From: Candidatus Accumulibacter cognatus
Lineage (GTDB): Bacteria; Pseudomonadota; Gammaproteobacteria; Burkholderiales; Rhodocyclaceae
Direction: 5' to 3'
DNA: 64,000 bases
Assembly: GCA_013414765.1 (NCBI GenBank)
Contig: CP058708.1
Coordinates: 4,630,748 to 4,694,747 of the forward strand
In this document: positions 23,219 through 38,720 of the stretch, piece by piece
Position numbering within the stretch: the first letter of the stretch is position 1
Layout: every line of letters starts with the position of its first letter
Notes under the pieces: generated by a model
The model's input: the letters and a program-made list of their open reading frames with translations, nothing else
What the model was told of the DNA's origin: nothing
Database searches by the model: none
Position numbers and translations under genes: made by a program

Positions 23219-23975
23219 TTAAGCATATGTTCTAGTAAAAAAATATCCAATTCCGTGAAATCGGCGCCTGCCTACGCGGCGTAGCTTGTCGGCTTTTTCC
23301 TTGAGCGGGAAGAACAGGCCGATGAACTCGAGGATTTGGGCCTGTTGATCTTCCGGGTGTGGCGAATGCGGGTGACGCTGACCGTTACGGCCGGTGCTGA
23401 AGAGATAGGTCAATCGTCCGAGCGCCACCAAGGCGTCGTCCGGAGTGATGGCGGCGGGGTCGTCTTCGGTGCTGCCGAAGGTCCGGTGTAGATCGGTTTC
23501 AAACCGCCGCGTGATCTTCATGGCGAGCATTGCCACGAAGGCATGCGCCTTGGTCCGCTCGGCCTTGCACGGGAAGGAAGATCGGGTGAGTTTTCAGGAA
23601 GGTGGTTTTCAGGGTACGGAAGTTGCGCTCGACTATTACAGGTTGAGCTTGCTTTCCACAGTGCTGCCCAGCACCCGCATGGTGCCCGCTTCGTCGCCAA
23701 CTGCTTAACCGTTGGCGATGAGGCTGCGCACTCGGGCAGGCAATCGCTCCCCTGGCGCGCATATCCGTTAAATAAAGGCACATTCCGAATGGAAGCGCTC
23801 GCCGCCTTTTGATGTCCGGGCGCCGGGTTTCGACATCGTGTGCGCGCAGCAGGTCTATGAACTGGCCGTCTGATGGCATGCGGCAAGCGCCCGGGGGCCT
23901 GGCCCGCTGGTGCCCGCGGGCGCATGGTTCAAAGCAGCGAGATTCTGTGCGCGCCTGCCGTTTCGGTGAGCACAA
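23219..23975 (-). pseudogene. IS5-family (IS427/IS1031-type) transposase remnant
   Basis: Frameshifted fragments PVIVERNFRTLKTTF / AHAFVAMLAMKITRR resemble the C-terminal VVERtFaWL...RRL region of IS5-group transposases; no intact ORF. Confidence 0.4.
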
Positions 23976-24954
23976 ACTCGACAGGCAGGAACTTGCCGAT
24001 CACTTCCACATTGGTCTGCAGATGCGAAGACACCCTCACCGTGGTGAAGGACCCGGCACCGGCGAGTGCCAGCGGCAGGACCAGCTGATCTGCCAGATGC
24101 TCGCCCACCACTGCAGTGCTGTCATGAAAATGCCGGGCGAGCTTCGCCACACGGTTGGCCACCACTTCAGCCGGCAAACCCTTTTCGCCAAAGGCAGTGA
24201 ACAGTTCGGTGATTTCTCTGTATTGCAGCTCAACCAGTAAAGCATTTCCTGGCCCCTCGCGCGAAGGCAGGGCACGCAGTTCCTGCTGCAATTCCCCCAG
24301 CACCCCGCCGAGCTGCAAGTCCAGTTCCGCCAGCTCGCGTTTGGCCACCTCAACGGGCACCCCCGCGACGATGGCCGTCGCCCGCGCTGCGCGCAGCTCG
24401 CCACGCTCCAGCAACTCGAAGGACTGCAGGGCCGAGACCGGACATACCCTGGCGTACAGCTCACCGCCGCCTGCCGGATAAAAGCCGTGGCGTAGCAGCT
24501 CGATGGCCATCTCCACACCCATGCGCAGGAGCAGCGGCAGCCAGCTACGGCTCAGAAAATCGAGTGGCGGTGCCGCTGGATTGTGGGTTCCGCCGCTGAT
24601 CCGCAGCGTGCTCGGTGCATCGGCGAACCACAGCGCCGGCAACAAGGTCTGCAGTACCAAGGTGCAGCTACCGGCCGTGCCAATGGCAAAGCGGTAGTCG
24701 TCACCGCGAATCTTGCCAGGGACAAAGCTCAGGGCTTGTGAACCCGGTGCCGCCCCCTGTACCTGTGCGCCGCAGATCTGCGCGGCGGCATTCACCGCCG
24801 TCAGATGCTGCCGCAACAAGCCAGGCTTGCTGCGCCTTGCACGAATTCGCTCGATGCGAAACGGTATTCCGGTAATCATCGACAAGGTCAGTGCGGTACG
24901 CAGAATTTGCCCGCCGCCTTCTCCGTGCGATCCGTCGAGTTCAATCATCTTCAT
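23929..24954 (-). CDS. rtcA: RNA 3'-terminal phosphate cyclase
   Basis: MIELDGSHGEGGGQILRTALTLSMITGIPFRIERIRARRSKPGL is the canonical RtcA N-terminus. Confidence 0.9.
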   Translation of the reverse strand: MKMIELDGSHGEGGGQILRTALTLSMITGIPFRIERIRARRSKPGLLRQHLTAVNAAAQICGAQVQGAAPGSQALSFVPGKIRGDDYRFAIGTAGSCTLVLQTLLPALWFADAPSTLRISGGTHNPAAPPLDFLSRSWLPLLLRMGVEMAIELLRHGFYPAGGGELYARVCPVSALQSFELLERGELRAARATAIVAGVPVEVAKRELAELDLQLGGVLGELQQELRALPSREGPGNALLVELQYREITELFTAFGEKGLPAEVVANRVAKLARHFHDSTAVVGEHLADQLVLPLALAGAGSFTTVRVSSHLQTNVEVIGKFLPVEFVLTETAGAHRISLL

Positions 24955-24982
24955 TCTTTCTTCTTGTTCCAGAAAGTAACTC

Positions 24983-26202
24983 TCAACCCTTGACGCACAC
25001 CACCTGGCGCAGAGTATGTACCACCTCCACGAGTTCGCGCTGCGCGTGCATCACCGCATCGATATCCTTGTAGGCCATCGGGATTTCATCGATCACATCG
25101 GCATCCTTCCGGCACTCGACGTGGGCGGTGGCGCGCTCCTGGTCGGCAACGGTGAAGCGGCGTCGGGCTTCGTTCCGGCTCATTGTTCGTCCGGCGCCGT
25201 GACTGCAGGAGCAAAACGATTCCTTGTTGCCCAGGCCGCGCACGATGAAACTCTTGGCGCCCATCGAACCCGGAATGATGCCGAGTTCGCCTTTCTGTGC
25301 CGAGACCGCCCCCTTGCGGGTGACCAATACTTCCGCACCAAAGTGAGTCTCGCGCTGGACGTAGTTGTGGTGGCAGTTTACGGCCTCGACGCTGGCGCCA
25401 AACGGTTTGGCAATCACGCCACGCGTAGCCGCAATGACGTTCTGCATCATCAGCAGACGATTTCGCCGCGCAAAATCCTGCGCCCAGCCGACAGCTTCGA
25501 CGTATTCGTTGAAGTGCTGGCTTCCCTCCTCAAAATAGGCGAGGTCACGATTCGGCAGATGGGAGATGTGCTGCTGCATATCCTTCTGTGCCAGTTTGAT
25601 GAAGTGGCTACCGATGGCATTACCGACGCCGCGCGAACCGGAATGCAGCATGAACCAGACGCGATCCGCTTCGTCGAGACAGACTTCGATGAAGTGGTTG
25701 CCGGTACCAAGCGTGCCGAGGTGCTTGTGGTTGTTGGTGTTCTTGAGACAAGGATGCCGGTCGGTGATGCGTGTAAAGCCTTCGATCAAACCAGCCCACA
25801 TGGCATCGACACTTGCCGGTGGCGTATCCCATGACCCTTCGTCGCGCCGGCCCCGGCCCATCGTTCGCCCGTGCGGCACGGCGCGCTCAATGGCCGTACG
25901 CAGCGCCAGCAGATTGTCCGGCAAATCGGTCGCCAGCAGCGTCGTGCACGCGGCCATCATGCCGCAGCCGATATCGACACCGACGGCAGCCGGGATGATC
26001 GCACCCTGCGTCGGGATGACGCTGCCGATCGTCGAACCCTTGCCCAGGTGTACATCTGGCATCACCGCCAGGTGCCGATAGATGAAGGGCATTCTGGCGG
26101 TGTCGATCAACTGCTTGCGGGCTTCGTCCTCAACCGGAACGTCTTGCGTCCACATCTTGATCGGTTTGCCGTTTTCGACTTCGAGGAGTTGATAGTCCAT
26201 TT
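24983..26202 (-). CDS. rtcB: RNA-splicing ligase RtcB
   Basis: RtcB signatures (NCHHNYV, GSMGAKS, SHGAGR); start at MDYQLLEV. Confidence 0.9.
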
Positions 26203-26213
26203 CCGTAATTCTT

Positions 26214-26615
26214 TCACTGATCGTCGGCGGCCTGCTTCTTCTGCAGGCCTTCCTGTTGCATACGGCGGGCCTGTGACTTGCGTTCGCGTTCCTTGATACG
26301 ACAAGGCCTGCATCGTACCGCGGTCGTTTCAACATTGCCCTGGGCAACTTCGTACCACCACTTTTGCTGCGTTGCGGTCCAGACGCACTCGACGCCGCAA
26401 TCCCTGCACCGGAAAGCAATGTCCACGTAATAACCGCGTTCGATGAACGCAGGCGCCCCGTAGCTGATGCGGCGAGCCAGGCGGGTCGTATCACACCACA
26501 CGATGCCCGAAGAGTAGACGTCAACCGACAGTGGCGAGGGGCTGCTCTGAATGCGCGTCGTACGCCGTAACCGGGCACTCTTGATTTCCAGCTTGCGCTG
26601 TTTTCCACTTTTCAT
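26214..26615 (-). CDS. C4 zinc-ribbon protein with lysine/arginine-rich tails (Rtc-operon associated)
   Basis: 133 aa; CRDCGVEC...x21...CRPC zinc-ribbon spacing; basic N- and C-termini suggest nucleic-acid binding; 11 nt upstream of rtcB. Confidence 0.55.
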   Translation of the reverse strand: MKSGKQRKLEIKSARLRRTTRIQSSPSPLSVDVYSSGIVWCDTTRLARRISYGAPAFIERGYYVDIAFRCRDCGVECVWTATQQKWWYEVAQGNVETTAVRCRPCRIKERERKSQARRMQQEGLQKKQAADDQ

Positions 26616-26699
26616 GATTTCACCTACACTTTCTGATTACCGCATTTTCAGGTTTTCACCGCTCGCTCTCTCCCTACATCGCACGAGAGGGTAAGCGAC

Positions 26700-27845
26700 T
26701 CACGCGCCCTTGATGTTCACCAGTCCGCTCAACACCTGATCCAGGCCACCAAACACCGAAATGCGGTCGATTCGTTCCGCCACACGTTCCAGGGTTTCCA
26801 GCTCCTTCAGACGCAGCGCGACCGGGTTTCCTTCCATCACTTTCGCGGTATTGAGCAGCGAACGTGTTGCCGCGGTTTCCTCACGGCGACGAATGACGTT
26901 CGCCTCAGCCAGCTTTCCGGCTTCGACCACCTTGGCAAGAATGGTCTTCATTTCGCCGGGCAGAACGATGTCCTTGACGCCGATGCTGCTCACCTCGATC
27001 CCGAAGCCGTTCAGCTTGCGCGCCACGTGCGCGCTGACTGCTTCGTCGATGATCTGCTTGTTTTCCAGCAGCTCGTCGAGCGATCGTGTTCCCACCGCGG
27101 CCCGCAAGCCGAACTGCAGTTCTCGATACAGGTGTTCGACTGGCTTTGCCAGCTTTTCGTGCGCCAGCAGCACGTCGGTATAGCGCCAGGTAGCCGCAAG
27201 GTTGAGGCGCAGGCCGACCTTGTCGCTGCTCAGAATTTCCTGGCCCGACACTTCCATGTTCTGCAGACGCATATCGACGAGTTCAACCAGCACTTCGCGG
27301 TTGAAGCGCCAGAATACCTCGACGCCGGGTGACATCAATCGCTGCACCTTGCCGTCGACGCGCAGAATGCCGACGTGGTAGGCAGGCACCTGCGCGATTA
27401 GCAGGCCGGCCAGGCCGCTCACCGCGTGCGCCCGCAGGCTCGGCTGCAGGAAGTGCGCTGCCAGTTGCGGTCCGACTTCATAGCCTTGCTGCAGATCGAC
27501 TTTTTCCAGTCTATGCTCGGCCAGGCCCTTCCAGAAAATGCGTCGTGACCCAGGCGCCAGCACTTCGACCAGGATCTTGTTCTCATAGCGCAATCCTGCC
27601 TCGTCCTCACCCAGTTCCATGCAGACGAAATGTTCCGCAACGGTCTGCGGCTGATGCTGAAGCAGGTAGTCGACCAGCGTGATGTCGCGCATGGGAGCGT
27701 CGAGCTTCCAGCTCTGGACCGAGAGCCGGTTCACAGGGTCGAAGAAGTAGTAACGGCCAGCGCTGAGAATGCGTTCGAAATCACCTTCCTTGAACAAGGC
27801 AGCCCGTTCACTCTTCAACACGACGAAACGCTTCAACATGTTCAT
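26700..27845 (-). CDS. SPFH/band-7 (slipin-like) domain protein
   Basis: 381 aa; band-7 core (IAQVPAYHVGILRVDGKV...NMEVSGQEILSSDKVGLRLNL...) plus C-terminal coiled-coil; first ORF downstream of the sigma54 promoter. Confidence 0.85.
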   Translation of the reverse strand: MNMLKRFVVLKSERAALFKEGDFERILSAGRYYFFDPVNRLSVQSWKLDAPMRDITLVDYLLQHQPQTVAEHFVCMELGEDEAGLRYENKILVEVLAPGSRRIFWKGLAEHRLEKVDLQQGYEVGPQLAAHFLQPSLRAHAVSGLAGLLIAQVPAYHVGILRVDGKVQRLMSPGVEVFWRFNREVLVELVDMRLQNMEVSGQEILSSDKVGLRLNLAATWRYTDVLLAHEKLAKPVEHLYRELQFGLRAAVGTRSLDELLENKQIIDEAVSAHVARKLNGFGIEVSSIGVKDIVLPGEMKTILAKVVEAGKLAEANVIRRREETAATRSLLNTAKVMEGNPVALRLKELETLERVAERIDRISVFGGLDQVLSGLVNIKGA

Positions 27846-28106
27846 TCTCCTTTGCTGTTGTTCTGTTGCCGGTCAATGCCGGTCCGCTGGGCCGATTGCC
27901 CGGCACTCGCGGGGAAGCGAGTGGCTGCCTGCCGGAGTCAGCGCTTCTCCCTTGGTGCCGAGGCACGCGGGGGAGGGCTGACATTCCTGCTTCGTCGCCT
28001 GCTCACCGTGCCGCCAGTGCGGGACAGTCGCCGACCGGACCGGCAGCGGGAGCTTGCGCATCCCGCGACCGACGGGTACTGCTAGCTTACGCTGTCGTGG
28101 AAAGAC

Positions 28107-28180
28107 AGTTTGGAGCGGGAATCGAACCCGCGACACACTGAGGATGAGTCAGTTGCTCTAACCGATTGAGCTATCCAATG
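28107..28180 (-). ncRNA. tRNA-like element (tRNA-Met CAU-like D-, anticodon- and T-arms, imperfect acceptor stem)
   Basis: Minus strand reads CATTGGA-TA-GCTCAATCGGTTAGAGC-A-ACTGA-CTCATCC-TCAGT-GTGTC-GCGGGTTCGATTCCCGC-TCCAAAC-T. The D-arm is near-identical to tRNA-Met; the anticodon loop carries CAT but pyrimidines at 37 and 38; two mismatches (1-72, 2-71) in the acceptor stem. Confidence 0.5.
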
Positions 28181-28181
28181 G

Positions 28182-28227
28182 GGGCGACCCGGGAATCGAA
28201 CCCGACGAGCTCCCGACGAGATCGCCC
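28182..28227 (-). ncRNA. Mini tRNA-like hairpin (acceptor-like stem enclosing a T-arm)
   Basis: GGGCGAT...TCGGGTTCGATTCCCGG-GTCGCCC-CCA: a 7-bp stem (GGGCGAT/GTCGCCC) closing a canonical T-stem-loop (TTCGATT), immediately 5' of the tRNA-like element on the same strand. Confidence 0.35.
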
Positions 28228-28351
28228 GTTATCGCCTTCCCGCTGTGGCGGCATGCACAGAAACGACAGACCGGAATCCGGTCTCTGCGCACCGGCGGGG
28301 TTTTGATCCCCTGCCCGTGGGCGTGCAGCGATGTTGCGACAGCTCTTCCAC

Positions 28352-28368
28352 AGCGAAATTCGTGCCAA
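28352..28368 (-). promoter_or_regulatory. sigma54 (-24/-12) promoter driving the tRNA-like elements, SPFH gene, zinc-ribbon gene, rtcB and rtcA
   Basis: Minus strand TGGCAC-GAATT-TCGCT against the consensus TGGCAC-N5-TTGCW; GG-N10-GC spacing is correct; divergent from rtcR, which encodes the cognate sigma54 activator. Confidence 0.55.
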
Positions 28369-28506
28369 CCTCTCGGAGAACCGCGGCATTGCATTCAAGC
28401 CATTGATCTGGCGAGATCTCCAGGATATTTGCGGCTTCCGTGAAAACAGGAGTGGGCGGCTTTTATTAGAATATAGAATCGATATTTATCTTTAAGGATA
28501 GTCAAC

Positions 28507-30096
28507 ATGAAGAGGAGCGTCGTCATCGGTTTTCTCGGTACGCAACTCGATTACGGTGGCAAGGGTAGCGCACGATGGGAGAAGTGGCGGCCGACGGTCG
28601 CCCTCTGCCAGCAGGAGGAGCTGATCGTTCATCGTCTGGAGTTGCTGCATGATGCACGCAGCCGCGGGCTGGCCGAGAGTGTGCAGGCGGACATCCAGTC
28701 GATATCGCCCGAAACCGAAGTCTGCCGCGTCGAGATCGAGCTGCGCGACCCCTGGGATTTCGAGGAAGTCTACACGACGCTGCACGACTTCGCGCGCGCT
28801 TACCCGTTCGACCCCGAGAACGAGGATTACCTGCTGCACATCACGACAGGAACCCATGTCGCACAGATCTGCTGGTTCCTGCTGGCCGAAGCGCGCTATT
28901 TGCCGGCCCGACTCCTGCAGACCTCACCGGCACGCAAGAAGGAGGTGGCGAATACTGCCGGAAGCTACGAGATCATCGATCTGGACCTGTCGCGCTACAA
29001 CAAGATTGCGCAGCGCTTTCAGCGCGAGCGCGCCGACACGGTGAGCTTCCTGAAATCCGGGATTGCCACGCGCAACGCCAGTTTCAACCGCATGATCGAG
29101 CAGATCGAACGGGTAGCGGGGCGCTCGAAGTCGCCAATGCTGCTGATCGGCCCCACCGGTGCGGGCAAATCGTTTCTCGCCCGCCGGGTGTACGAACTCA
29201 AGCGACAGAAGCAGCGTCTGGCCGGACGTTTCATCGAGGTGAACTGCGCGACCTTGCGCGGCGATTCGGCCATGTCCAGCCTTTTCGGCCACGTCAAGGG
29301 AGCCTTCACGGGGGCGCAAAATGAACGCCCCGGGCTCCTTCGAGCGGCCGATGGCGGATTGCTGTTTCTAGACGAAATCGGCGAACTCGGACTGGACGAG
29401 CAGGCAATGCTACTCAAGGCGATCGAGGAAAAGCGCTTCTTCCCCTTCGGTGGCGACCAGGAAGTAACGAGCGACTTCCAGCTCATCGCCGGCACCCATC
29501 GCGACCTGCGCCATTGGGTTGCCGAGGGGCATTTCCGCGAAGACCTGTATGCGCGCATCAACCTGTGGACCTTCGACCTGCCCGGCCTGGCTCAACGGCC
29601 CGAGGACATCGAGCCCAATCTCGATTACGAGCTGGAACGTTATGCGCGTGACCATGATCAGCTCGTGCGCTTCAACGTCGAAGCCCGCCGCCGCTATCTG
29701 GCCTTTGCCAGCTCGGCGGACGCTGTCTGGAGCGGCAATTTCCGTGAACTCTCGGCATCGGTCACGCGCATGGCGACTCTGGCCGAAGCGGGACGGATCA
29801 CCGAGGCGCTGGTTATCGAGGAGATCGAGCGGCTTGGCCACAGCTGGGTCAGCCGCCGGCCGGCCGATGCGGTCGCTGCTATCCTGGGCGAACAGGCCGA
29901 GCAACTCGACCTCTTCGATCGCTGCCAGCTTAACGCGGTGATCGCTGTTTGCCGGCAAGCGGCAAGCCTTTCGGATGCCGGTCGACAGCTTTTCGCCGTA
30001 TCCCGCTTGGACAAGAAAACGGCCAACGACGCTGACCGGCTGCGCAAATACCTGTCACGCTTCGGCCTCGACTGGACGGCCGTAAATCACCAATGA
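28507..30096 (+). CDS. rtcR: sigma54-dependent transcriptional regulator RtcR (CARF domain + AAA+ + HTH)
   Basis: 529 aa; N-terminal CARF-like domain, central sigma54-interaction AAA+ (LLIGPTGAGKS...GAFTGA...GGLLFLDEIGEL), C-terminal HTH; divergent from the rtcBA operon. Confidence 0.9.
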   Translation: MKRSVVIGFLGTQLDYGGKGSARWEKWRPTVALCQQEELIVHRLELLHDARSRGLAESVQADIQSISPETEVCRVEIELRDPWDFEEVYTTLHDFARAYPFDPENEDYLLHITTGTHVAQICWFLLAEARYLPARLLQTSPARKKEVANTAGSYEIIDLDLSRYNKIAQRFQRERADTVSFLKSGIATRNASFNRMIEQIERVAGRSKSPMLLIGPTGAGKSFLARRVYELKRQKQRLAGRFIEVNCATLRGDSAMSSLFGHVKGAFTGAQNERPGLLRAADGGLLFLDEIGELGLDEQAMLLKAIEEKRFFPFGGDQEVTSDFQLIAGTHRDLRHWVAEGHFREDLYARINLWTFDLPGLAQRPEDIEPNLDYELERYARDHDQLVRFNVEARRRYLAFASSADAVWSGNFRELSASVTRMATLAEAGRITEALVIEEIERLGHSWVSRRPADAVAAILGEQAEQLDLFDRCQLNAVIAVCRQAASLSDAGRQLFAVSRLDKKTANDADRLRKYLSRFGLDWTAVNHQ

Positions 30097-30111: not shown

Positions 30112-32040
30112 TCACGCCTGGCGCTGACCATTGGTGCAGGCGGTGCAGAGAGACTTGCCGTTGGCGAACAGGCAAACCCGGTCCCGACCGGCTTTCTTGG
30201 CGGCGTAGAGGGCTTTGTCTGCAGCCCGGAGCAGGTCATCCTCATTGTCCATGCCGTTCTCCCGGTTGGCTACGCCGATGCTCACCGAGATCTTGATCTC
30301 CGTACCAGCGATGTGGATCTGCATCGCCTTGACCATCCGCCGTAGACGCTCGGCAGCCAGCAGGGCCGCTCGGGGGTCGGCATCGTGACAGACCACCAGG
30401 AACTCCTCCCCGCCGATCCGGCTGACACTATCGTCCTTGCGGGCTGCAGACTGGATGGCCTTGGCCACCTCCCGCAAGACCCGATCACCCATCGCGTGAC
30501 CATATCGGTCATTGATGGACTTGAAGAAATCAACATCGATCATGAGGGCTGCCACCGGTTGGCCCGTGCGCTGGGAGGCACTCCAGAAGCGGCTCAGCAA
30601 CTCCATGCCGGCCCTTCGATTGGGTAGCTCGGTCAGCGGGTCGGTCATCGCGGCATGTTCCAGCCGCCGGTTACTGATCGCCAGCTCTGCCGTAAACTGC
30701 TTGAGCTGTGTCCGATCCTTCTCCCAGGCCTCGAGCAGCTTCACGTAATGCAGGGCCGCCCTCATTCGGGCGCTCAAGGCTCGGACATGCACCGGTTTGG
30801 TCACGTAATCGTCGACCCCCGCTTCGAAAGCCTCGATGATCTTGCTTTCGTTCTCTTCGCCGGTCAGCATGATCACATACATGGACTGTCCCCATTCGGT
30901 GGCACGCAGGGCGCGGCAGAACTCGACCCCGTCCATGACCGGCATGTGCCAGTCGGTGATGACGATCTGGGGCATGACTTCCAGAGCCAGGGCCAGACCA
31001 TCCTCGCCATTTTCGGCGGTGTGGACCCGGCAACCGAGAAGGTGGCTCAGCAAACCCTCCGTCATCATCAGGGTCGTGGGGTCGTCCTCTACCAGCAAGA
31101 CCCGCTTACGGCTGTGCTCCGTCTTTGATTCCTGCTCCGGGCGGGGAACCGGAGCATTGGCCATGGCGCTAAACGCAGGGAGCTGGGCGGTAGGCACCTT
31201 CAGCAGATCGGTCCATGCTTGCCACTGGTGAACCACACGGTCGAATACTTCGCCCATGGCCGTCACATCCAGACCGGCCTTGCCACCCAGCAGCATCAGC
31301 TCGACAATGTTGCCATGGCGCTCCGACTCGGGTGAGCGACCGAGGTCCGCCATTCGTCGTGCCTGGAAGAACAGATGGGTCAACTGATCAGGCCGGGAAC
31401 CCTCGGAAAAGCCGGAGGTCTGCGGAAACTCGTGGTAATAGACAGGCTCGGCAAGGGCTTTAGGAATGCCGCAATCAGCGAGGATGGCGGTAGTGAATTC
31501 GGTGTGATCTGCTCCAAGACGCCTGCGCTCCAGTTCCAGGAGTACTGCACCATGGCTCTGCTCGGCCAGTACCGTCGCATAGTCGGCGGGGTAGAGGGTG
31601 GCCAGCGCCAGACGGCCGATCTGCGCCAACAGACCACAGGCAAACAGTTCGTCAGGTGAAGCAAGCCGTACCATCCGGCCCAACTCCTGGCTGGCCACCG
31701 CCATGAACAGGGAGTGGGACCAGAAAGCCGGATAATCAAAGGCGGCGCACTGTCCCTGCAGATACTGGTCGACCAGAGAAAAGCCCATGGCCAGTTGGCG
31801 GACGGTCGTCATGCCCAGGCGCATCACGGTTTCCCTGACCGAGACCAAGGGCCGAGTACCAGCCGATGAAGCATTGGCGAGACGCAACAGGCGGCTGGAG
31901 AGCGCAGGGTCGCCCTGAACTACCCGGGCCACCTCGTCAATAGTCGCATCCTCGCGCCTACAGATCTCCATGATCGCCAACGCCACCCCTTTCGGGCTGG
32001 GAAGTTGGCCGCTGATCCGCAATTGTTCGATCTTGCTCAT
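30112..32040 (-). CDS. HDOD-REC-GGDEF response regulator/diguanylate cyclase
   Basis: N-terminal HDOD domain, receiver domain (RVLLVEDDP...ITDWHMP), GGDEF domain with a GGEEF active site and RxxD I-site; start taken at MSKIEQL rather than the extended 6-frame ORF. Confidence 0.85.
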   Translation of the reverse strand: MSKIEQLRISGQLPSPKGVALAIMEICRREDATIDEVARVVQGDPALSSRLLRLANASSAGTRPLVSVRETVMRLGMTTVRQLAMGFSLVDQYLQGQCAAFDYPAFWSHSLFMAVASQELGRMVRLASPDELFACGLLAQIGRLALATLYPADYATVLAEQSHGAVLLELERRRLGADHTEFTTAILADCGIPKALAEPVYYHEFPQTSGFSEGSRPDQLTHLFFQARRMADLGRSPESERHGNIVELMLLGGKAGLDVTAMGEVFDRVVHQWQAWTDLLKVPTAQLPAFSAMANAPVPRPEQESKTEHSRKRVLLVEDDPTTLMMTEGLLSHLLGCRVHTAENGEDGLALALEVMPQIVITDWHMPVMDGVEFCRALRATEWGQSMYVIMLTGEENESKIIEAFEAGVDDYVTKPVHVRALSARMRAALHYVKLLEAWEKDRTQLKQFTAELAISNRRLEHAAMTDPLTELPNRRAGMELLSRFWSASQRTGQPVAALMIDVDFFKSINDRYGHAMGDRVLREVAKAIQSAARKDDSVSRIGGEEFLVVCHDADPRAALLAAERLRRMVKAMQIHIAGTEIKISVSIGVANRENGMDNEDDLLRAADKALYAAKKAGRDRVCLFANGKSLCTACTNGQRQA

Positions 32041-32153
32041 GTGTTCCTGCTGATGGTGGCTGGTTTCTCGTTCCCGAGCAGCATGTAGTCTATCAGCCTT
32101 GCCGTGCAAGGAATCGATTTCAGGCAGCGAATGGCCTGTGCATGGGTTCCGGG

Positions 32154-32522
32154 TCATGCGGGGAGATAGGCATCTTCTTCCCGGATGCTGGTCGGATCGC
32201 TTGCTCCCTGAAGGTCTGCCGCGAGCAGGCCAGGGGGTTGCGCGGGCCCGCTTGCGGTCGGGTCGGTGTCGGCGGCCGTGTCGAGGAAGCTTCTGATGGC
32301 CTCTGCAAGTCGCCACCGGTGCAAGGCCAGCGAGGCCCCGACCTGGCGACGGGCTGCAACGCGGTCGCCGATGGCGAGCGAACAGAGCGCCTGTTCGAGC
32401 AGGCGCGCCGCTTGCCCGATCGCCTGCCGGACGAGCGAAAAATCGCAGCCGCAACGCGGACAGACGGCCGCTTCGGCCAGGCGCGCCCGACACGCCGGAC
32501 AGCGATCGAGCAGTTCAGACAT
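32154..32522 (-). CDS. C4 zinc-ribbon protein, translationally coupled to the upstream Hsp70
   Basis: CPACRARLAEAAVCPRCGC (CxxC-x9-CxxC) followed by a ~100-aa Ala/Arg-rich tail; ATGTCTGA start/stop overlap with the Hsp70 gene. Confidence 0.55.
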   Translation of the reverse strand: MSELLDRCPACRARLAEAAVCPRCGCDFSLVRQAIGQAARLLEQALCSLAIGDRVAARRQVGASLALHRWRLAEAIRSFLDTAADTDPTASGPAQPPGLLAADLQGASDPTSIREEDAYLPA

Positions 32523-34284
32523 CGAGGTAATACAGGAGGTCGGCAAGCGCATCCATCGCCACTTTCAGGTCGGCGTCCGATCCCTCGGTTTGGTTTTTGA
32601 CAACTTCTATGCCATTCACCAGATCCTCGGCATCTTCCGTACCCGCCCTGGCCAGCAGTCGCTCGGCCTTTTCGATCAGGGTGCCGGCTTCGACGCGCAG
32701 GCGCCTGCGGTCGTCTGAAGGTGAAGCCTCGGTGGTAGTCGCGACGGGCTGCCTGTCGGCGCCTTCCTGCTCGCCAAACAGGCCATCGATGCGTTCCCGT
32801 GCTTCCGCCAGCTTGTCGCCGGTGAAGCGGCTGATGGCATTGTCGATGGTAATCGAATGCACCAGGCCGGTTTCCTTCTCGCGTGAAGTCACCTCCAGGA
32901 TACCGTTGACATCGAGCGAAAAGGTGGTGACCAGCGGGTTGCCGGCCGGCGCATCGCGCAAGCCATCGATGGTGAATCGCCCGATCTCGATGTTGTTCAG
33001 CGCGTCCGGGTCCTCGCCCTGGTAGACGTGGATGTCGACCTTGCTCTGACCGTCGAAAATGGTGCAGAAGCCCTCGCTCCTTGAGACCGGAATCGGTGTG
33101 TTCTTGCGAATCAGCGGCACGAAGCAGAAGGGGTACATTTGACCATTGAAATACTCGAGAGCGCTGGTACCGAAGGTGTAGGGCGTGACATCGATGAGCA
33201 CCGTCGGGGCCTGGCCGCCGGCGATCACGGCTGCCTGGATGGCGGCGCCCATTGCGACACAGAGATCGGGATCGACCTCGGCGCGCGGCTGCATCCCGAG
33301 TTCCTGCTCAAGGCGGCGCTGGACGAGCGGTGTCCGCGTGGCCCCACCGACGAGCAGGATTTCGTTGATGTCGGCGACCGTCAGTCCGGCGCCACTCAAG
33401 GCGATATGCACGGCGTCGAGGGTCTCGGCGATATACGGCTCGATCATCTCCTCGTATTCGTTGCGCGAAACTTCGACCGACAGGTGGATCGGCACGCCAT
33501 CCTTCTCGAGCAGGTACTCTTCCGAGAGCGTGGCGTAAGGTTCGCTGGAAAGGATGATCTTGGCCGCTTCCGCAGCGTGCTGCAGGCGAGCCATGGCCAG
33601 CGGATGCTGTCCGACATCGATGTCGTGCCGCTCGCGCAGATGATCGGTCGCGAAGCTGATCAGTTTCTGGTCGAAATCGTCGCCACCCAGATGATTGTTG
33701 CCGTGACTGGACAGCACTTCAACGACATCGCTCTCCAGGTTGACGACCGAGACATCGAAGGTGCCACCGCCGAGGTCATAGACCAGCGCCTTGCGGGCGC
33801 CGCTGTGGCAGCTTTCATAGGCCAGCGCCGCTGCTGTCGGCTCGTTGATGATGCGTACCACCTCCAGACCGGCGATTTCGCCGGCTTCGCGCGTCGCCTG
33901 ACGTTGGGCATCGGAGAAATAGGCGGGCACGGTAATTACCGCCTTGCCCACGGGCTCACCCAGGTGCGCCTCGGCGATGTCCCGCAGTCGGCGCAGGATC
34001 ATCGCCGAGATTTCCTGCGGGCTGTAATCCTTGCCGGCCATCTGCACCGAGGCGAACTCACCCATTCGACGCTTGATCGAACGTACGCTGCGCTCGGGGT
34101 GCAGCGCATACTGATTGCGCGCCGCCTCGCCGACCAGCAGGCTGCCGTCGTCGGCAACCCCCACCAGCGAGGGCAGAATGCGTACACCGGGTACCACCGG
34201 AATGACCTCGACACGTCCTTCACGGACGATTGCCACTTCTGAATTGGTCGTACCGAGATCGATACCGACAATGATTTCCGTCAT
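32515..34284 (-). CDS. Hsp70-family ATPase, short non-canonical HscC-like paralog (589 aa)
   Basis: IGIDLGTTNS, DLGGGTFD, ILLVGGATRTP actin-fold motifs plus a substrate-binding domain; shorter than DnaK and not in a dnaK-dnaJ context. Confidence 0.9.
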   Translation of the reverse strand: MTEIIVGIDLGTTNSEVAIVREGRVEVIPVVPGVRILPSLVGVADDGSLLVGEAARNQYALHPERSVRSIKRRMGEFASVQMAGKDYSPQEISAMILRRLRDIAEAHLGEPVGKAVITVPAYFSDAQRQATREAGEIAGLEVVRIINEPTAAALAYESCHSGARKALVYDLGGGTFDVSVVNLESDVVEVLSSHGNNHLGGDDFDQKLISFATDHLRERHDIDVGQHPLAMARLQHAAEAAKIILSSEPYATLSEEYLLEKDGVPIHLSVEVSRNEYEEMIEPYIAETLDAVHIALSGAGLTVADINEILLVGGATRTPLVQRRLEQELGMQPRAEVDPDLCVAMGAAIQAAVIAGGQAPTVLIDVTPYTFGTSALEYFNGQMYPFCFVPLIRKNTPIPVSRSEGFCTIFDGQSKVDIHVYQGEDPDALNNIEIGRFTIDGLRDAPAGNPLVTTFSLDVNGILEVTSREKETGLVHSITIDNAISRFTGDKLAEARERIDGLFGEQEGADRQPVATTTEASPSDDRRRLRVEAGTLIEKAERLLARAGTEDAEDLVNGIEVVKNQTEGSDADLKVAMDALADLLYYLDV

Positions 34285-35003
34285 GGGTTGGTTGCTTTCT
34301 TGCTGACAATGACTTCGGCGACACGCAACAGCTCGCCATTATGGAGAAACCCGCGCCTGACCTCGCGCAGGATGGTGCCATCCGGCACGCTTGACGAACT
34401 GCTAGCGGCCTCGACGCCGACCACCCGCATTCGTTGCGGATCGAGGATCTCGCCGAGCACTGGCAGCGGCCGCACCCGATGGCTGGCGAGCAGGTCGTCG
34501 AGGCGCTGCAGGGTCAGCCGCTGGCCCTCCGCCAGGCTCGCCGCGAAACGCGTCGGTCCGGGCACCAGACGCGTCAGAAACGACGACGGTGGCTTTCCGG
34601 CGGCGTCGACACCGCTTTGCAGGCGATCGCGCAGGTCCAGCAGGGCCAGCAGAAATTGCCGCTCGGTCTGCCCCTGGATCGATGCTGCCTGCTCCCGCGC
34701 TCGTTCGAGATCACGCTGCAGGCGCTCGCCGTGTTGACGCAGGTCGTTGCCAAAACCTCTTAATTCATCAAGGGTATTCTTGAACTGGCGAGATTGCAGC
34801 CGCAATTCGCTCTTCAGAACGGCCATCTCGCTGAGCAGGGTGGCCAGGTCAACCGAGGTCTCTGTATCGCCGGCGGCCTGGTCATCCGGCTCACCCGCCG
34901 GTTCGCACTCGCACTGCCTGGCCGCACGCTCGAGAGCGGCGCGGAAATCGTCTACCAGACGCGCTCTTTCCTCGGGGTCGAGGACGATCACCGGCGAGTT
35001 CAT
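34281..35003 (-). CDS. GrpE-like nucleotide-exchange-factor homolog
   Basis: Coiled-coil N-region; C-terminal ...FDP-like PLPVLGEILDPQRMRVVG...GTILREVRRGFLHNGELLRVAEVIVSK matches the GrpE beta-domain pattern (V..GY..NG.LLRPA.V.V); 4-nt overlaps on both sides. Confidence 0.65.
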   Translation of the reverse strand: MNSPVIVLDPEERARLVDDFRAALERAARQCECEPAGEPDDQAAGDTETSVDLATLLSEMAVLKSELRLQSRQFKNTLDELRGFGNDLRQHGERLQRDLERAREQAASIQGQTERQFLLALLDLRDRLQSGVDAAGKPPSSFLTRLVPGPTRFAASLAEGQRLTLQRLDDLLASHRVRPLPVLGEILDPQRMRVVGVEAASSSSSVPDGTILREVRRGFLHNGELLRVAEVIVSKKATNP

Positions 35004-35290
35004 TTCGCTCCCAGTAACCGCAGCAGCCGCCGTTCGGTGGGTGGCTGCGGGACAAAATCGCTGCTGACGGCGCTCAACAAATCATCGATGGTTGGCAGGG
35101 AACAGTCGAACAGCGCGTGCGCCAGCCGCCGATGATGGTTGCAGATCGCCTCATAGGCCGTGCGTACGCTCTCGAAGCGCTCGCGGTCACGTTCCGGGGG
35201 CGATTCGCGAATCGCCGCCAGGTAAGCGGCACGAATCGTCTCGTCAGCCGCCGTCAGGTCGACGCCAAGAATGCGGTAGGGGTCAATCAT
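35000..35290 (-). CDS. J-like domain protein lacking the HPD motif
   Basis: MIDPYRILGVDLTAADETIRAAYLAAIRESPPERDRERFESVRTAYEAI has the J-domain helix I-III pattern, but SPPERD replaces HPD; ATGATTGA overlap with the upstream TPR-like gene. Confidence 0.65.
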   Translation of the reverse strand: MIDPYRILGVDLTAADETIRAAYLAAIRESPPERDRERFESVRTAYEAICNHHRRLAHALFDCSLPTIDDLLSAVSSDFVPQPPTERRLLRLLGAK

Positions 35291-37817
35291 CGAACAGCCC
35301 TTTCTGTCGATCGTCCTGAACGGGTTGTTTTGGCGCGGTCGAGCGAGACCTCGGCTTCGGCTCCGGCAGCCCGCCCGACGGGGAAGCGGTGAAAGAAGGC
35401 AGATCGAGGTTTGCAAGGCTTTCGGCCAGCAGTTCGATCAACATTTCGGCCAGCTTTTTCCGGTTGCCGCCGGCAGCATGCTCGAGCGGACGAAACTTGC
35501 TGTCGGGGAGGATCTCGCGGGCCATGCGGATCACTTCGTTGGGTCCCCCCATCGACATCAAAAGATTGAACACCTCCCGTGGATTCGCAGGCAAATCGTC
35601 AACTAAATCGCCGAAGTCATCGTCGTCGTCGAAGTCATCCGAATCCTCGCCACTGAAATAGCCTGGCGGCCCCATCAGATCGCGGATCCGCAGCACCGTC
35701 CGTTGGTCGCCGTCCTCCAGGGCCTTCTTCAGCGCACCTTCCAGGGCCTGTCGCTCGCGCTCCGACATCGCGAAAAAAGCACCTTGGCCGTGTTTGGCAA
35801 AGGTCGCCAGATAGACAAAAAGCGGCCGCTCGGGCCAGCGCCGCAAACCGGCATCGGCGTAGGCCTGCAGAAGTGCCCGCTCTTCCCGTCTCAACAGCGT
35901 CTCGCAGATCGAGATCCGTTCGGATTCACTGAACTCGCCAGCAGCCGCGCGTTTCAGCGGCGCCCGCAGGGTGTCGAGAACGGTCCGCAGTGCCTTCGAC
36001 TCGTTGTCGCCCAGTGCGTTGATGGCGTGCATGACGGTCAGCACTTCTCGAGGCATGGGCATTCCCGACAGGTCAGGCGCTGCCCGGCGCAGTTCTCCGG
36101 CCGGCTGGCTGCCGACCCGGATGCTTTCGAGCAGAACGTGCCAGGCAGCGAGCAGCCTGCCTCCCAGTTCGCCGACGGCTTCACGCAACAGCACGGTCGC
36201 TCGCGCATCGTCGGCGCTCAGCCCGCGCAACAGCTTGCTAACGCTGCGTTCATTTGCGGTAGCGAGCCATACGTCGGCGAGGTCGAGTTCCTTGCCGGCC
36301 GCTTCCGGTCGGTGCAGCCGAATCTGTTTTCGGGCATGCGACAGGTGCGCTCGACCGATCAGCGCCCGCACCTTCGAATTGATCGGATCGAGATCGAGCA
36401 GACGTTTGGCGAGTGTCACCGCTTTCTTGAAGGCATTGCCGGCCAGTGCCGTTTCGACGGCTTCGAGCAATACTGCCGGGTCGTTGGCAAAGCGCGCCAG
36501 CGCCGTCTCGACAGACGCACGCGCTGCTTTCATATTCCGTCCCTGGCGGTGCAGGCGGATCAGCTTCAGGTGCGTGGCGCGGTCGTCCGGGTCGAGTTCC
36601 AGGCTGCGTTCGAGCCAGGAGGTGCACTCGTCATCATAGTCCGAAGCATCCTTGTCGCCGACGATCAGATCAAAGAGATGGCGAAGGATCAAGGCCGCCT
36701 GCAGCGGCGCTTCCTCCGTCGAAAACAGGCGGACAGCGTGCAACCAGTGCGATTCGCTGTGATTGATTGCACCCCGGCATTGGGCGGCGAGAGCCAGGAT
36801 GCGCTCGCTCTCTGCTTCGCCCAGTGGACCGAAAGCATTCCGGTACTCAGCAAGACGTTTTTCCGCGTAAGGCAGCAGGCGGCGACAAAGCCTGGCTGCC
36901 GTTGCCGGTAGGCCGCGGCTGCGGCGCAGCAGTAGGTCGACGACCCCGGTCGGCGTCGGAGGTACGCCATTCCTGGCCAGTGCGGCCACTTCGAGCAACA
37001 GCGGGCGCCGATTCTCCGGGCAACCCTTGATTTCCAGCAACAAGTACCGGCCCTCCTCGTCGAGATCGAGCAGAGCCAACAGCCAGCCCTTGCCCGGCAG
37101 GACGCCGGCACGAACGACCGCGGCCAGTTTCTCGAAGGGGCCGTCGACAGTCACTCGGGCGATCAGGCCGGCCGCCTGGGCAGCGTCATTGCCGACCAGT
37201 AGCAGTGCCTTGAGGATGAAGCGCAGATCACGATATGGAGAGCGAAAGGGAATACAGCGCAATTGCTCGTCCAGGTCGGCCAGATCACCCCGGCAGCAGG
37301 CGGCAATGGCTGCCTGTGCTGCCGCACGATGACGGCGCAGCGGACTGTCGGCGGCGAGCTGAGCGAGGGCGCTGTCGGGCGCGGTCAGCGCCACCGCCGC
37401 CAGACGGGTTTCCAGGTCGGCGTCGACGGTTGCCACGGCATCGCCTGTCGGCGTCAGCAGACGCAGTGCCGCGTCATGTGCGCCGGTACGCAGTAACCAG
37501 TCGAGGTAGGGGCCCTCGACCAGCGATTTGCCACACAGCGTGGAGCGGTTGCGCCAGATCACCAGCGCCTCCTGCAGCATGCTCTTGCTTGCCAGCTCCT
37601 TGGCCCGACCGGCGTAGCTCGCCGCCAAGCCGTCAAGCCATTCGGATCGACGTTCTTGCTTGAGCAGGTTCTTGTAGAGTTCGATCGCCTCACGATAGCG
37701 GCCCGCGTCGAGAACCTGTCTGGCATGTGCTTCGGGGGATACGGGAGTGCCCGCTGGCGCAGGACGCGACAGCGCTGGTCGATGCTTGCGCGACATGATC
37801 GAGAGACTTACCCGCAA
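35283..37817 (-). CDS. Large (844 aa) alpha-helical TPR-like repeat protein with an acidic DSDDFDDDDDFGD tract; first gene of the Hsp70 operon
   Basis: Repeated Leu/Ala-rich helical hairpins (TPR/Sel1-like by eye); no P-loop; coding bias consistent across the whole ORF. Confidence 0.75.
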   Translation of the reverse strand: MRVSLSIMSRKHRPALSRPAPAGTPVSPEAHARQVLDAGRYREAIELYKNLLKQERRSEWLDGLAASYAGRAKELASKSMLQEALVIWRNRSTLCGKSLVEGPYLDWLLRTGAHDAALRLLTPTGDAVATVDADLETRLAAVALTAPDSALAQLAADSPLRRHRAAAQAAIAACCRGDLADLDEQLRCIPFRSPYRDLRFILKALLLVGNDAAQAAGLIARVTVDGPFEKLAAVVRAGVLPGKGWLLALLDLDEEGRYLLLEIKGCPENRRPLLLEVAALARNGVPPTPTGVVDLLLRRSRGLPATAARLCRRLLPYAEKRLAEYRNAFGPLGEAESERILALAAQCRGAINHSESHWLHAVRLFSTEEAPLQAALILRHLFDLIVGDKDASDYDDECTSWLERSLELDPDDRATHLKLIRLHRQGRNMKAARASVETALARFANDPAVLLEAVETALAGNAFKKAVTLAKRLLDLDPINSKVRALIGRAHLSHARKQIRLHRPEAAGKELDLADVWLATANERSVSKLLRGLSADDARATVLLREAVGELGGRLLAAWHVLLESIRVGSQPAGELRRAAPDLSGMPMPREVLTVMHAINALGDNESKALRTVLDTLRAPLKRAAAGEFSESERISICETLLRREERALLQAYADAGLRRWPERPLFVYLATFAKHGQGAFFAMSERERQALEGALKKALEDGDQRTVLRIRDLMGPPGYFSGEDSDDFDDDDDFGDLVDDLPANPREVFNLLMSMGGPNEVIRMAREILPDSKFRPLEHAAGGNRKKLAEMLIELLAESLANLDLPSFTASPSGGLPEPKPRSRSTAPKQPVQDDRQKGLFDD

Positions 37818-38192
37818 TAAATCAAACTTAGATTCTACATGAAATAATCCGCTTCCCTGTCGGTAAGAATTCGTCAGCAGCCATTCTCATATTGGCCAAC
37901 CAGACCTTCTGCTTCCCCAGCGAGCGCATGGAAATCGGCAACAATTGCGAGACTTGATTTCTGAGTTTCCACCACTATTCTGTTATGGAGACATCAAAAA
38001 GCGAAGCAGGATGCTTGCTCGCTGCAAGAATGCCGCGTTTCCAGGGGGGCAACCCGTGAGTTGCGCAGTTCTTGCGATGTTGAAGGTCGTTTTTCGTCGT
38101 TTGACTCACAGCTTGCCGGGTAGACCAGCCGATAAGCGTGCGGTTTGTTCCCGTCGGCGAGCGATGGGGCAGTGTGCACAAAGGAGATTGTC

Positions 38193-38720
38193 ATGACCGA
38201 GAAGGAAAACAAATCGGAAGTGAAAGAAGAGAAGGGCGGAAAGGCTGTGGCAGTTCAGCGGGGCGCTCTCGCTCCTTTCAAGAGTTTCGAAGATCGCTTT
38301 GAGCAGATGGAACGTTTCATGGATCGCATGATGGGAGGTCTTTTCCCAGGCCGCTGGATGCGATCCTTCGAACGCGAATGGCCTGAATTTGCCGAGCTGC
38401 GGGCACCAGCGGTCGATCTGATTGATCGCGCCAATGAAATTCTGGTGCGTGCGGAATTGCCGGGCGTCAAGAAGGAGGACATTTCGATCTCGCTCACCGC
38501 GGATTCGATCACCATTCAGGCCCAGAGCAATAAGGAAGCAGAGGAAGAAAAAGGCGATTACAAGCGACGCGAGATCAGTTCGAGCGCTTTCTCCCGCTCG
38601 ATATGGTTACCCGCCGAAGTCGACTCGGATGCGGCCAAAGCGGCGTTCAAGGACGGCGTCCTCGAAGTCACGCTTCCGAAGACCGCTGGAGCCAAAGGGA
38701 AAAGCGTTCCGATCGACTAG
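38193..38720 (+). CDS. small heat-shock protein, Hsp20/alpha-crystallin family
   Basis: Alpha-crystallin domain (AVDLIDRANEILVRAELPGVKKEDISISL...GVLEVTLPK); divergent from the Hsp70 operon. Confidence 0.9.
   Translation: MTEKENKSEVKEEKGGKAVAVQRGALAPFKSFEDRFEQMERFMDRMMGGLFPGRWMRSFEREWPEFAELRAPAVDLIDRANEILVRAELPGVKKEDISISLTADSITIQAQSNKEAEEEKGDYKRREISSSAFSRSIWLPAEVDSDAAKAAFKDGVLEVTLPKTAGAKGKSVPID

Follow-up and report, generated by a model that had tools for sequence, protein, structure and literature searches.

We analysed a stretch of 64,000 nucleotides (nt) from Candidatus Accumulibacter cognatus (contig CP058708.1, positions 4,630,748 to 4,694,747 of the forward strand), referred to below as the window. 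Our subject is a small gene on its minus strand whose 96-residue product is J-like but lacks the His-Pro-Asp (HPD) tripeptide. It is the second of five genes, the cassette, which encode in this order a large scaffold of tetratricopeptide repeats (TPR), the J-like protein, a GrpE, an Hsp70 and a zinc-ribbon protein. At the HPD position the J-like protein reads Pro-Pro-Glu, and this variant loop is conserved throughout its family. The J-like gene has the following features:

35000..35290, minus strand: J-like mini co-chaperone gene, 96 amino acids (aa) plus stop (open reading frame [ORF], Pfam, AlphaFold2 [AF2], Foldseek, homologues)
35290..35108, minus strand: J domain with four helices, residues 1-61 (AF2 model)
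35192..35200, minus strand: P31-P32-E33, codons CCC CCG GAA, in the loop between helices II and III (HMMER alignments)
35107..35003, minus strand: C-terminal extension with two helices and a conserved R-P...L...L motif, residues 62-96

A J domain with an altered loop

The product of the J-like gene (MIDPYRILGVDLTAADETIRAAYLAAIRESPPERDRERFESVRTAYEAICNHHRRLAHALFDCSLPTIDDLLSAVSSDFVPQPPTERRLLRLLGAK) matches the Pfam DnaJ family (PF00226) across residues 3-56 with 30.3 bits, above the cutoff of 27.8 (E 4.4e-7), and its only noteworthy matches in NCBIfam are weak ones to DnaJ models, in their N-terminal J region. An AF2 model based on 28 homologues has a mean predicted local distance difference test (pLDDT) score of 80.6, which is about 90 across residues 1-50. 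In this model, the J-domain helices lie at residues 4-8, 16-29, 36-49 and 52-61, followed on the C-terminal side by two extra helices (68-78 and 86-92). When the model was compared with the Protein Data Bank using Foldseek, J domains or J-domain proteins made up nearly all of the top 50 matches. The top matches have template modelling (TM) scores to target of 0.77-0.82 and root-mean-square deviations (rmsd) of 1.3-2.1 Å; CbpA (3ucs; TM to target 0.82, rmsd 1.8 Å) and DnaJ on DnaK (5nro; rmsd 1.7 Å) are examples. Since the Pfam score, the model and the Foldseek matches agree, the assignment of the J fold is sound: the ORF is a real gene, and its product has a true J-domain fold. This bears out an earlier note, made from the sequence alone, which had called a 96-aa J-like protein at 35000-35290; the four modelled helices, the alignment with DnaJ and the solved J domains matched by the model all point the same way. 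Homologues begin at the matching MxDPY start. The longest version of the ORF, from a TTG start, has 138 aa, with a 42-residue N-terminal extension.

HMMER alignments place the "ESPPER" of the J-like protein over the "KYHPDR" of Escherichia coli DnaJ and the "EWHPDK" of mouse KIAA0962. The HPD position is thus P31-P32-E33, and S30 takes the place of the aromatic residue found just before the His. The earlier note had seen correctly that HPD is replaced, but had read the replacement as SPP, which is one residue off. This correction of register is of consequence: the Pro is still there and Glu is a conservative substitute for Asp, leaving the His as the only residue lost non-conservatively. The absence of HPD itself stands: in a six-frame translation of 34900-35450, the 138-aa TTG-start ORF included, we found no HP[DE] tripeptide, and no alternative start or frame restores the motif.

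The altered loop is a property of the whole family. Searching 1.84 billion cluster representatives with a profile gave at least 432 clusters (50% identity) at E <= 1e-10. We counted loop residues in 146 aligned sequences, comprising the query and those of the best cluster representatives that have fewer than 200 residues. Position 31 is Pro in 130, Ser in 14 and Thr in two; position 32 is Pro in 143 and Ala in three; and position 33 is Glu in 97 and Asp in 47, an acidic residue thus being present in 144 of the 146. None has a His at the HPD position, and 25 read HPPE, with a His one residue before it. Ser or Thr stands for Pro at the His position in about one cluster in nine. All 120 homologues listed (51-96% identity), the source-named members of which are from Accumulibacter, Sulfuricella, Nitrosomonadales and Variovorax, read [S/C/Y/H]PPERD, and orthologues in the same operon context likewise lack HPD. 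The per-position entropies of the loop (0.56, 0.14 and 1.02 bits at positions 31, 32 and 33) are among the lowest in the J-like protein, comparable to those of the J-fold core residues L8, D16, Y23, F39, A45 and R55. The family-wide loop motif is [P/S]-P-[E/D], which the 148 top-ranking cluster representatives share with the close homologues. Because this motif is fixed across the family with low entropy, the variant loop is under purifying selection rather than in decay, and since PP[E/D] is strictly conserved across several bacterial phyla, we regard it as a selected feature.

A five-gene Hsp70 cassette

The earlier note had described the J-like gene as co-encoded with a dedicated Hsp70. Overlaps between adjacent genes and synteny in 61 genomes confirm this, and the operon further encodes the GrpE, the TPR scaffold and the zinc-ribbon protein named above. 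The other genes of the cassette are:

35283..37796, minus strand: large TPR/alpha-solenoid scaffold, 837 aa (Pfam TPR_19, AF2, alignment A3)
34281..35003, minus strand: GrpE-family nucleotide exchange factor, 240 aa (Pfam GrpE, 66.3 bits)
32515..34284, minus strand: dedicated Hsp70, 589 aa (Pfam HSP70, 485 bits)
32154..32522, minus strand: zinc-ribbon (CxxC...CxxC) plus helical protein, about 122 aa (ORF)

The reading frames overlap by 4-8 nt. In gene order, the scaffold stop overlaps the J-like start (ATGATTGA), the J-like stop the GrpE start (ATGA), the GrpE stop the Hsp70 start (ATGA) and the Hsp70 stop the zinc-ribbon start (ATGTCTGA). The scaffold probably starts at the ATG at 37796 rather than at the TTG at 37817, and it is 100% identical to a protein of Ca. 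Accumulibacter cognatus (P0389, 837 aa). In its AF2 model (pLDDT 85), an alpha-solenoid covers residues 21-708 and is followed by a linker that is acidic and disordered; residues 739-795 form a four-helix domain, and the tail is Pro-rich. Its matches in Foldseek are all generic TPR superhelices (Ctr9, Ski3, IFT-A and subunits of APC/C), with TM scores below 0.27, and distant orthologues have at most one marginal TPR match in Pfam. The scaffold ends in QKGLFDD (codons 35283-35300); across 39 homologues no substitution is seen at F835 or D836, and conservation at L834 and D837 is 90% or higher. The LFDD end resembles a short linear docking motif, perhaps for the substrate pocket of the Hsp70, for the J-like protein or for the zinc-ribbon protein.

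The cassette GrpE scores below all NCBIfam cutoffs for housekeeping GrpE. A protein of 803 aa in a betaproteobacterial metagenome-assembled genome (MAG) (P0329; L029, 7297-9693) is an apparent fusion of GrpE and Hsp70, which may be an indel artefact. For the zinc-ribbon gene, the MSELLDRCPAC start at 32522 is the most likely one, not the upstream ATG at 32552, and its product is weakly matched by Pfam DZR_2. Matches to it by tblastn lie 3' of the Hsp70 gene in most loci, and the corresponding place is taken by CxxC proteins in Verrucomicrobiales, Acidobacteria and an "Enterobacteriaceae" MAG.

A scan with one genome per species, using alignment A1 since the more diverse alignment A2 was too variable, found 61 cassette loci. 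In these, the genes for the large protein, the J-like protein, GrpE and Hsp70 follow one another in order, usually with the zinc-ribbon gene next. In nearly all loci, the gene directly upstream of the J-like one encodes a protein of 785-960 aa (54 of 61 by tblastn, seven by ORF inspection), and GrpE follows the J-like gene in 60 of 61, the exception (L058) being a locus that stops inside the J-like gene. The 61 genomes span six bacterial lineages. The cassette occurs in betaproteobacteria (Accumulibacter, Paraburkholderia, Variovorax, Massilia, Gallionella and Thiobacillus), in gammaproteobacteria (Halomonas, Thiococcus and Ectothiorhodospiraceae) and, beyond these two classes, in Acidobacteria, Verrucomicrobiales and Myxococcales; its gene order is repeated in two additional metagenome loci. 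The flanking genes of the 61 loci are unrelated between lineages, with no recurrent family among them beyond generic response regulators and ABC ATPases. Searches with DnaJ and DjlC found no J protein in the window other than the J-like gene, and neither a second J-like match nor an HPD-bearing J partner was seen in the 61 cassettes. Scans for promoters and terminators yielded nothing beyond shuffled expectation. From the gene content and arrangement, the best explanation is that the cassette is a self-contained, horizontally portable and translationally coupled Hsp70 machine.

Other stand-alone chaperone modules are similar in part. AtcJ of Shewanella oneidensis resembles the J-like protein in its length of about 95 aa, in having a J domain with a short C-terminal extension, and in being operon-encoded (PMC6715715), and the NCBIfam AtcJ model matches the J-like protein faintly (E 0.04). 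However, AtcJ has a functional canonical J domain that works with the housekeeping DnaK, and no dedicated Hsp70 or GrpE. GrpS-SglK of Myxococcus xanthus is likewise a GrpE and an Hsp70 paralogue in one operon, not inducible by heat and with an unidentified J partner. SglK, in contrast, is a DnaK of the PRK00290 type that complements an E. coli dnaK mutant, whereas the cassette Hsp70 is under the PRK00290 cutoff. Identity of the cassette with SglK/GrpS therefore seems unlikely, SglK being a canonical PRK00290 DnaK.

The partner Hsp70 and the affinity to DjlB, DjlC and HscC

The cassette Hsp70 combines a DnaK-like nucleotide-binding domain with an HscC-like substrate-binding beta domain. It falls under the NCBIfam cutoffs for DnaK and HscA (536.6 against 648 for PRK00290-type DnaK). 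Among E. coli proteins it is closer overall to DnaK (42% identity) than to HscA (37%) or HscC (36%). Nevertheless, it shares with HscC a deletion of DnaK 76-101, a shortened 208-213 loop and an insertion in L1,2 of the substrate-binding domain, together with the residues Y397, V-S-R at 420-422, Y441, S477 and N481, some of them HscC-specific residues of the substrate domain. These characters are mostly conserved across 52 cassette Hsp70s. The cassette Hsp70 has residues across DnaK 285-300, the region of the GrpE signature, where HscA is deleted, which fits the presence of a GrpE in the cassette. In this it differs from HscC, which has no GrpE signature and is thought to be GrpE-independent (PMC8215388). 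The C-terminus of the Hsp70 (32515-32545) reads LADLLYYL[D/E]x, is conserved in 120 homologues and has neither an acidic disordered tail nor an EEVD-like motif.

The residues on which catalysis and coupling depend are retained. The catalytic D8, K70, E171, D194, T199 and D201, as well as P143, R167, N170, T173, L391, D393 and P419 of the allosteric network and linker, are found in 52 of 52 cassette Hsp70s, D148 and L484 in 51, and Q378 in 48. A metagenomic cassette (L070, 3501-6347) whose J loop reads HPPD has a Lys at the otherwise invariant R167. In the crystal structure of DnaK with a J domain (5NRO), H33 of the HPD motif contacts the carbonyl of L391, P34 packs on P419, and D35 contacts R167 and Q378 (PMC8215388). 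Since R167, Q378 and P419 are kept in the Hsp70, and P32 and E33 in the J-like protein, the receptors, the acid and the Pro for two of the three HPD contacts are retained. R167 and Q378 correspond to R144 and Q350 in the window's Hsp70. Several electrostatic steering pairs have changed on both sides: DnaJ K26, R27 and K48 are L, A and Q/E in the J-like protein, and DnaK E206 and D477 are N/R and S/A in the Hsp70.

The J-like domain is closest to those of DjlB and DjlC. The J-like family profile (consensus aIraaYlaaVreyPPerDperFqriraAYea) aligns without a gap over their first 48 residues, with 47.5 and 42.9 bits, whereas DnaJ needs a gap of six residues in the loop between helices II and III. 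DjlB and DjlC have the same short loop and share with the J-like family the pattern AYL...[H/P]PE.DP..F..R.AYE, Glu standing for Asp; the helix II positions K26 and R27 carry other residues in them, as in the family. They differ in keeping the His (HPE), which is Pro in the J-like protein, and in being 475-483 aa long and tail-anchored, DjlC inserting into the plasma membrane (PMC8215388), whereas the J-like protein has 96 aa and, in its AF2 model, only two short C-terminal helices beyond the J domain. The ATPase of HscC is stimulated by DjlC but by none of DnaJ, CbpA and HscB (PMC8215388). HPE is an active variant in this DjlC-HscC pair (PMC13254874, PMC8215388), and it has been called "the only replacement tolerated" (PMC13254874). 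Sequence comparison thus shows an affinity of the J-like domain to the HPE-type domains of DjlB and DjlC, to whose lineage it belongs, and the simplest history is an HPE-type J domain in which His was changed to Pro. We looked for a cassette that still bears HPE, using the degenerate DNA pattern Y-L-x3-R-x2-H-P-E-R-D-P on metagenome contigs; this narrow pattern gave four matches, all spurious. The hscC locus of E. coli (L065, 676000-690000) has the Sel1 genes ybeQ and ybeT and the DUF1266 genes ybeR and ybeU interleaved with djlB and djlC, and its TPR-like Sel1 genes are a loose parallel to the TPR scaffold of the cassette.

Possible roles of the J-like protein and their significance

The reading that we favour, with confidence evenly balanced for and against, is that the cassette has its own activator in the J-like protein, which docks in the canonical manner, is insulated from the DnaK-DnaJ system and is tethered to the scaffold through its C-terminus. 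The J-like domain would bind its cognate Hsp70, which is HscC-like, at the canonical J site. Two contacts would be retained, that of Glu33 with R167/Q378 and that of Pro32 with P419, and one lost, the hydrogen bond of DnaJ His33 to the Hsp70 linker (L391 carbonyl). The changed steering pairs and the lost His contact would make the two proteins a co-adapted pair that is insulated from housekeeping DnaK and DnaJ. The J-like protein would still trigger ATP hydrolysis, perhaps at a tuned, lower rate, after which GrpE would reset the Hsp70 cycle. Through its 35-residue C-terminal extension, the J domain would be tethered to the TPR scaffold, and the two would act as a split, client-selecting co-chaperone of class C ("TPR-J"). 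Indeed, the scaffold and the J-like protein together resemble the common "J plus TPR" architecture of class C, split into two polypeptides (PMC10410713). Somewhat more tentatively, a PP[E/D] J domain may trigger hydrolysis in a co-adapted HscC-like Hsp70, in which case the HPD His would be dispensable where the partner interface has co-evolved, and the cassette would be a natural orthogonal J/Hsp70/GrpE module set apart from DnaK-DnaJ.

Several points weigh against this reading. Pro is unable to donate a hydrogen bond to the linker. Conservation of the contact residues in the Hsp70 is no proof that they are used by a J domain, because R167, Q378 and others also serve interdomain allostery. The clamp residues D326 and D481 are changed to G and N in most members, and the allostery of the Hsp70 may itself differ. 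Furthermore, in three cassettes with a PPD loop (L056, L059 and L060) the equivalent of Q378 is Leu or Met, through two independent events, while it is still Gln in three others (L035, L068 and L070); position 33 of the J-like protein and Q378 may covary, but the numbers are very small. As for the tether, we infer it purely. In favour of a link to the scaffold, one cluster representative (P0195, 743 aa) has the scaffold and the J-like protein in one product, which could be a true fusion or an indel artefact, since the two genes overlap. Finally, the His is replaced non-conservatively, and His mutants have been inactive in all systems tested.

The last point is also the main argument for a second reading, less probable but still a serious one, in which the protein is a pseudo-J (type IV) tether or brake. 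It would bind the Hsp70, or only the scaffold, and would not trigger ATP hydrolysis; the Hsp70 would be held at the scaffold or inhibited, with hydrolysis induced by substrate alone or by the housekeeping DnaJ. Much of the positive patch of helix II (K26, R27) is lost, as is K48, and Pam16 (DKE) and DNAJB13 (HPL), among others, are precedents for conserved J-like domains without stimulating activity. Like Pam16/Tim16, DNAJB13 and the Plasmodium type IV J-domain proteins, the J-like protein has a J fold with a non-conservative change of HPD that is conserved in its family. However, the helix II and K48 changes are the same in DjlB and DjlC, and yet DjlC stimulates HscC (PMC8215388). Pam16 (DKE/DKS) has neither the Pro nor the acid in register, whereas the J-like protein keeps both; they are almost invariant, and a mere tether would not need them. 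Pam16 partners the HPD-bearing Pam18, but none of the 61 cassettes encodes such a partner, and the J-like gene, unlike that of Pam16, shares an operon with genes for a dedicated Hsp70 and GrpE. Reliance on the DnaJ of the host would, moreover, be fragile in a cassette that moves between phyla.

This second reading is that of the earlier note, to which the lack of HPD had suggested a non-canonical, possibly inhibitory or targeting, cofactor. The suggestion is not supported in that form, since it rests on the mis-registered motif: the acidic residue that contacts R167/Q378 is kept as Glu or Asp almost throughout the family, HPE is active in DjlC-HscC, the Hsp70 residues that contact HPD are kept, and there is no second, HPD-bearing J protein for a brake of the Pam16 type. 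A targeting role through the C-terminal extension and the TPR partner is plausible, most likely in addition to activation and not in place of it.

A third reading, which we consider improbable, is that the cassette is a conflict or anti-phage system, comparable to the GAP1-N2 systems (Kaur et al. 2020), with the J-like protein as a regulatory switch. The patchy spread over several phyla and the unrelated flanks are in keeping with this, as are the toxin-antitoxin or transposase genes that adjoin some loci. Like the cassette, the published conflict systems co-encode Hsp70, GrpE, J and TPR proteins apart from the housekeeping dnaK operon (PMC7159879). However, they include a GTPase and proteins with fibronectin type III (FNIII) repeats and occur mostly in Actinobacteria and Firmicutes (PMC7159879), and neither component was seen at the cassettes. 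The PADLOC defence models match none of the five cassette proteins, no recurrent GTPase, effector or conserved neighbour is present in the flanks of the 61 loci, and no copies of the cassette were found in viral and plasmid collections. A GTPase gene adjoins the Sulfuricella cassette (L002); being beside no other cassette, it was rejected as a linked component. Least of all do we credit a decaying or mis-annotated J gene in which the loss of HPD is an accident or a start or frame artefact: the Pfam score is barely over the cutoff, but no frame contains HP[DE], 61 genomes have an intact frame with translational coupling, and the conservation of the loop, among the most conserved positions of a family of at least 432 clusters, excludes it.

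The surroundings of the cassette in the window are particular to its closest relatives. Directly 3' of it lies a gene for an HDOD-REC-GGDEF response regulator (30112-32070, minus strand), an adjacency conserved only in the closest Accumulibacter loci (L004 and L007). Divergent from the cassette, across about 350 bp of intergenic sequence, is an Hsp20/alpha-crystallin gene (38145-38720, plus strand), which is otherwise adjacent only in L005. Farther away is an RNA-repair operon with an extra SPFH gene (23929-30096). It has rtcR on the plus strand (28507..30096; NCBIfam RtcR, 856 bits) and, divergently on the minus strand, the SPFH/Band-7 gene (26700..27845), rtcB (24983..26608) and rtcA (23929..24954). 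The HDOD-REC-GGDEF gene, rtcR and the Hsp20 gene recur near the cassette in the closest Accumulibacter genomes only, and the RNA-repair operon is unrelated to the cassette save by this position.

Full-text searches of the literature turned up no account of the cassette or of J domains with a PP[E/D] loop as a family. In the large 2023 census of J-domain proteins, the main dataset excludes sequences that lack a full HPD, and HPE is the one variant discussed (PMC10410713). A 2026 review, for which HPE is the sole tolerated replacement, states that whether other deviations are accidents or positively selected "remains enigmatic" (PMC13254874). The PP[E/D] family is a clean counter-example, with a non-HPD loop fixed over at least 432 clusters and several phyla. 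Because the J-like gene adjoins its own Hsp70 and GrpE genes, the cognate partner is known without guesswork, and the cassette is a natural test of the "essential" His for which three or four small soluble proteins suffice. Should the J-like domain prove inactive, it would count, on the literature searched, as the first Pam16-like regulator from bacteria to have an Hsp70 of its own. Should it prove active, the requirement for the His would be context-dependent, and the cassette would provide a ready-made orthogonal Hsp70 system.

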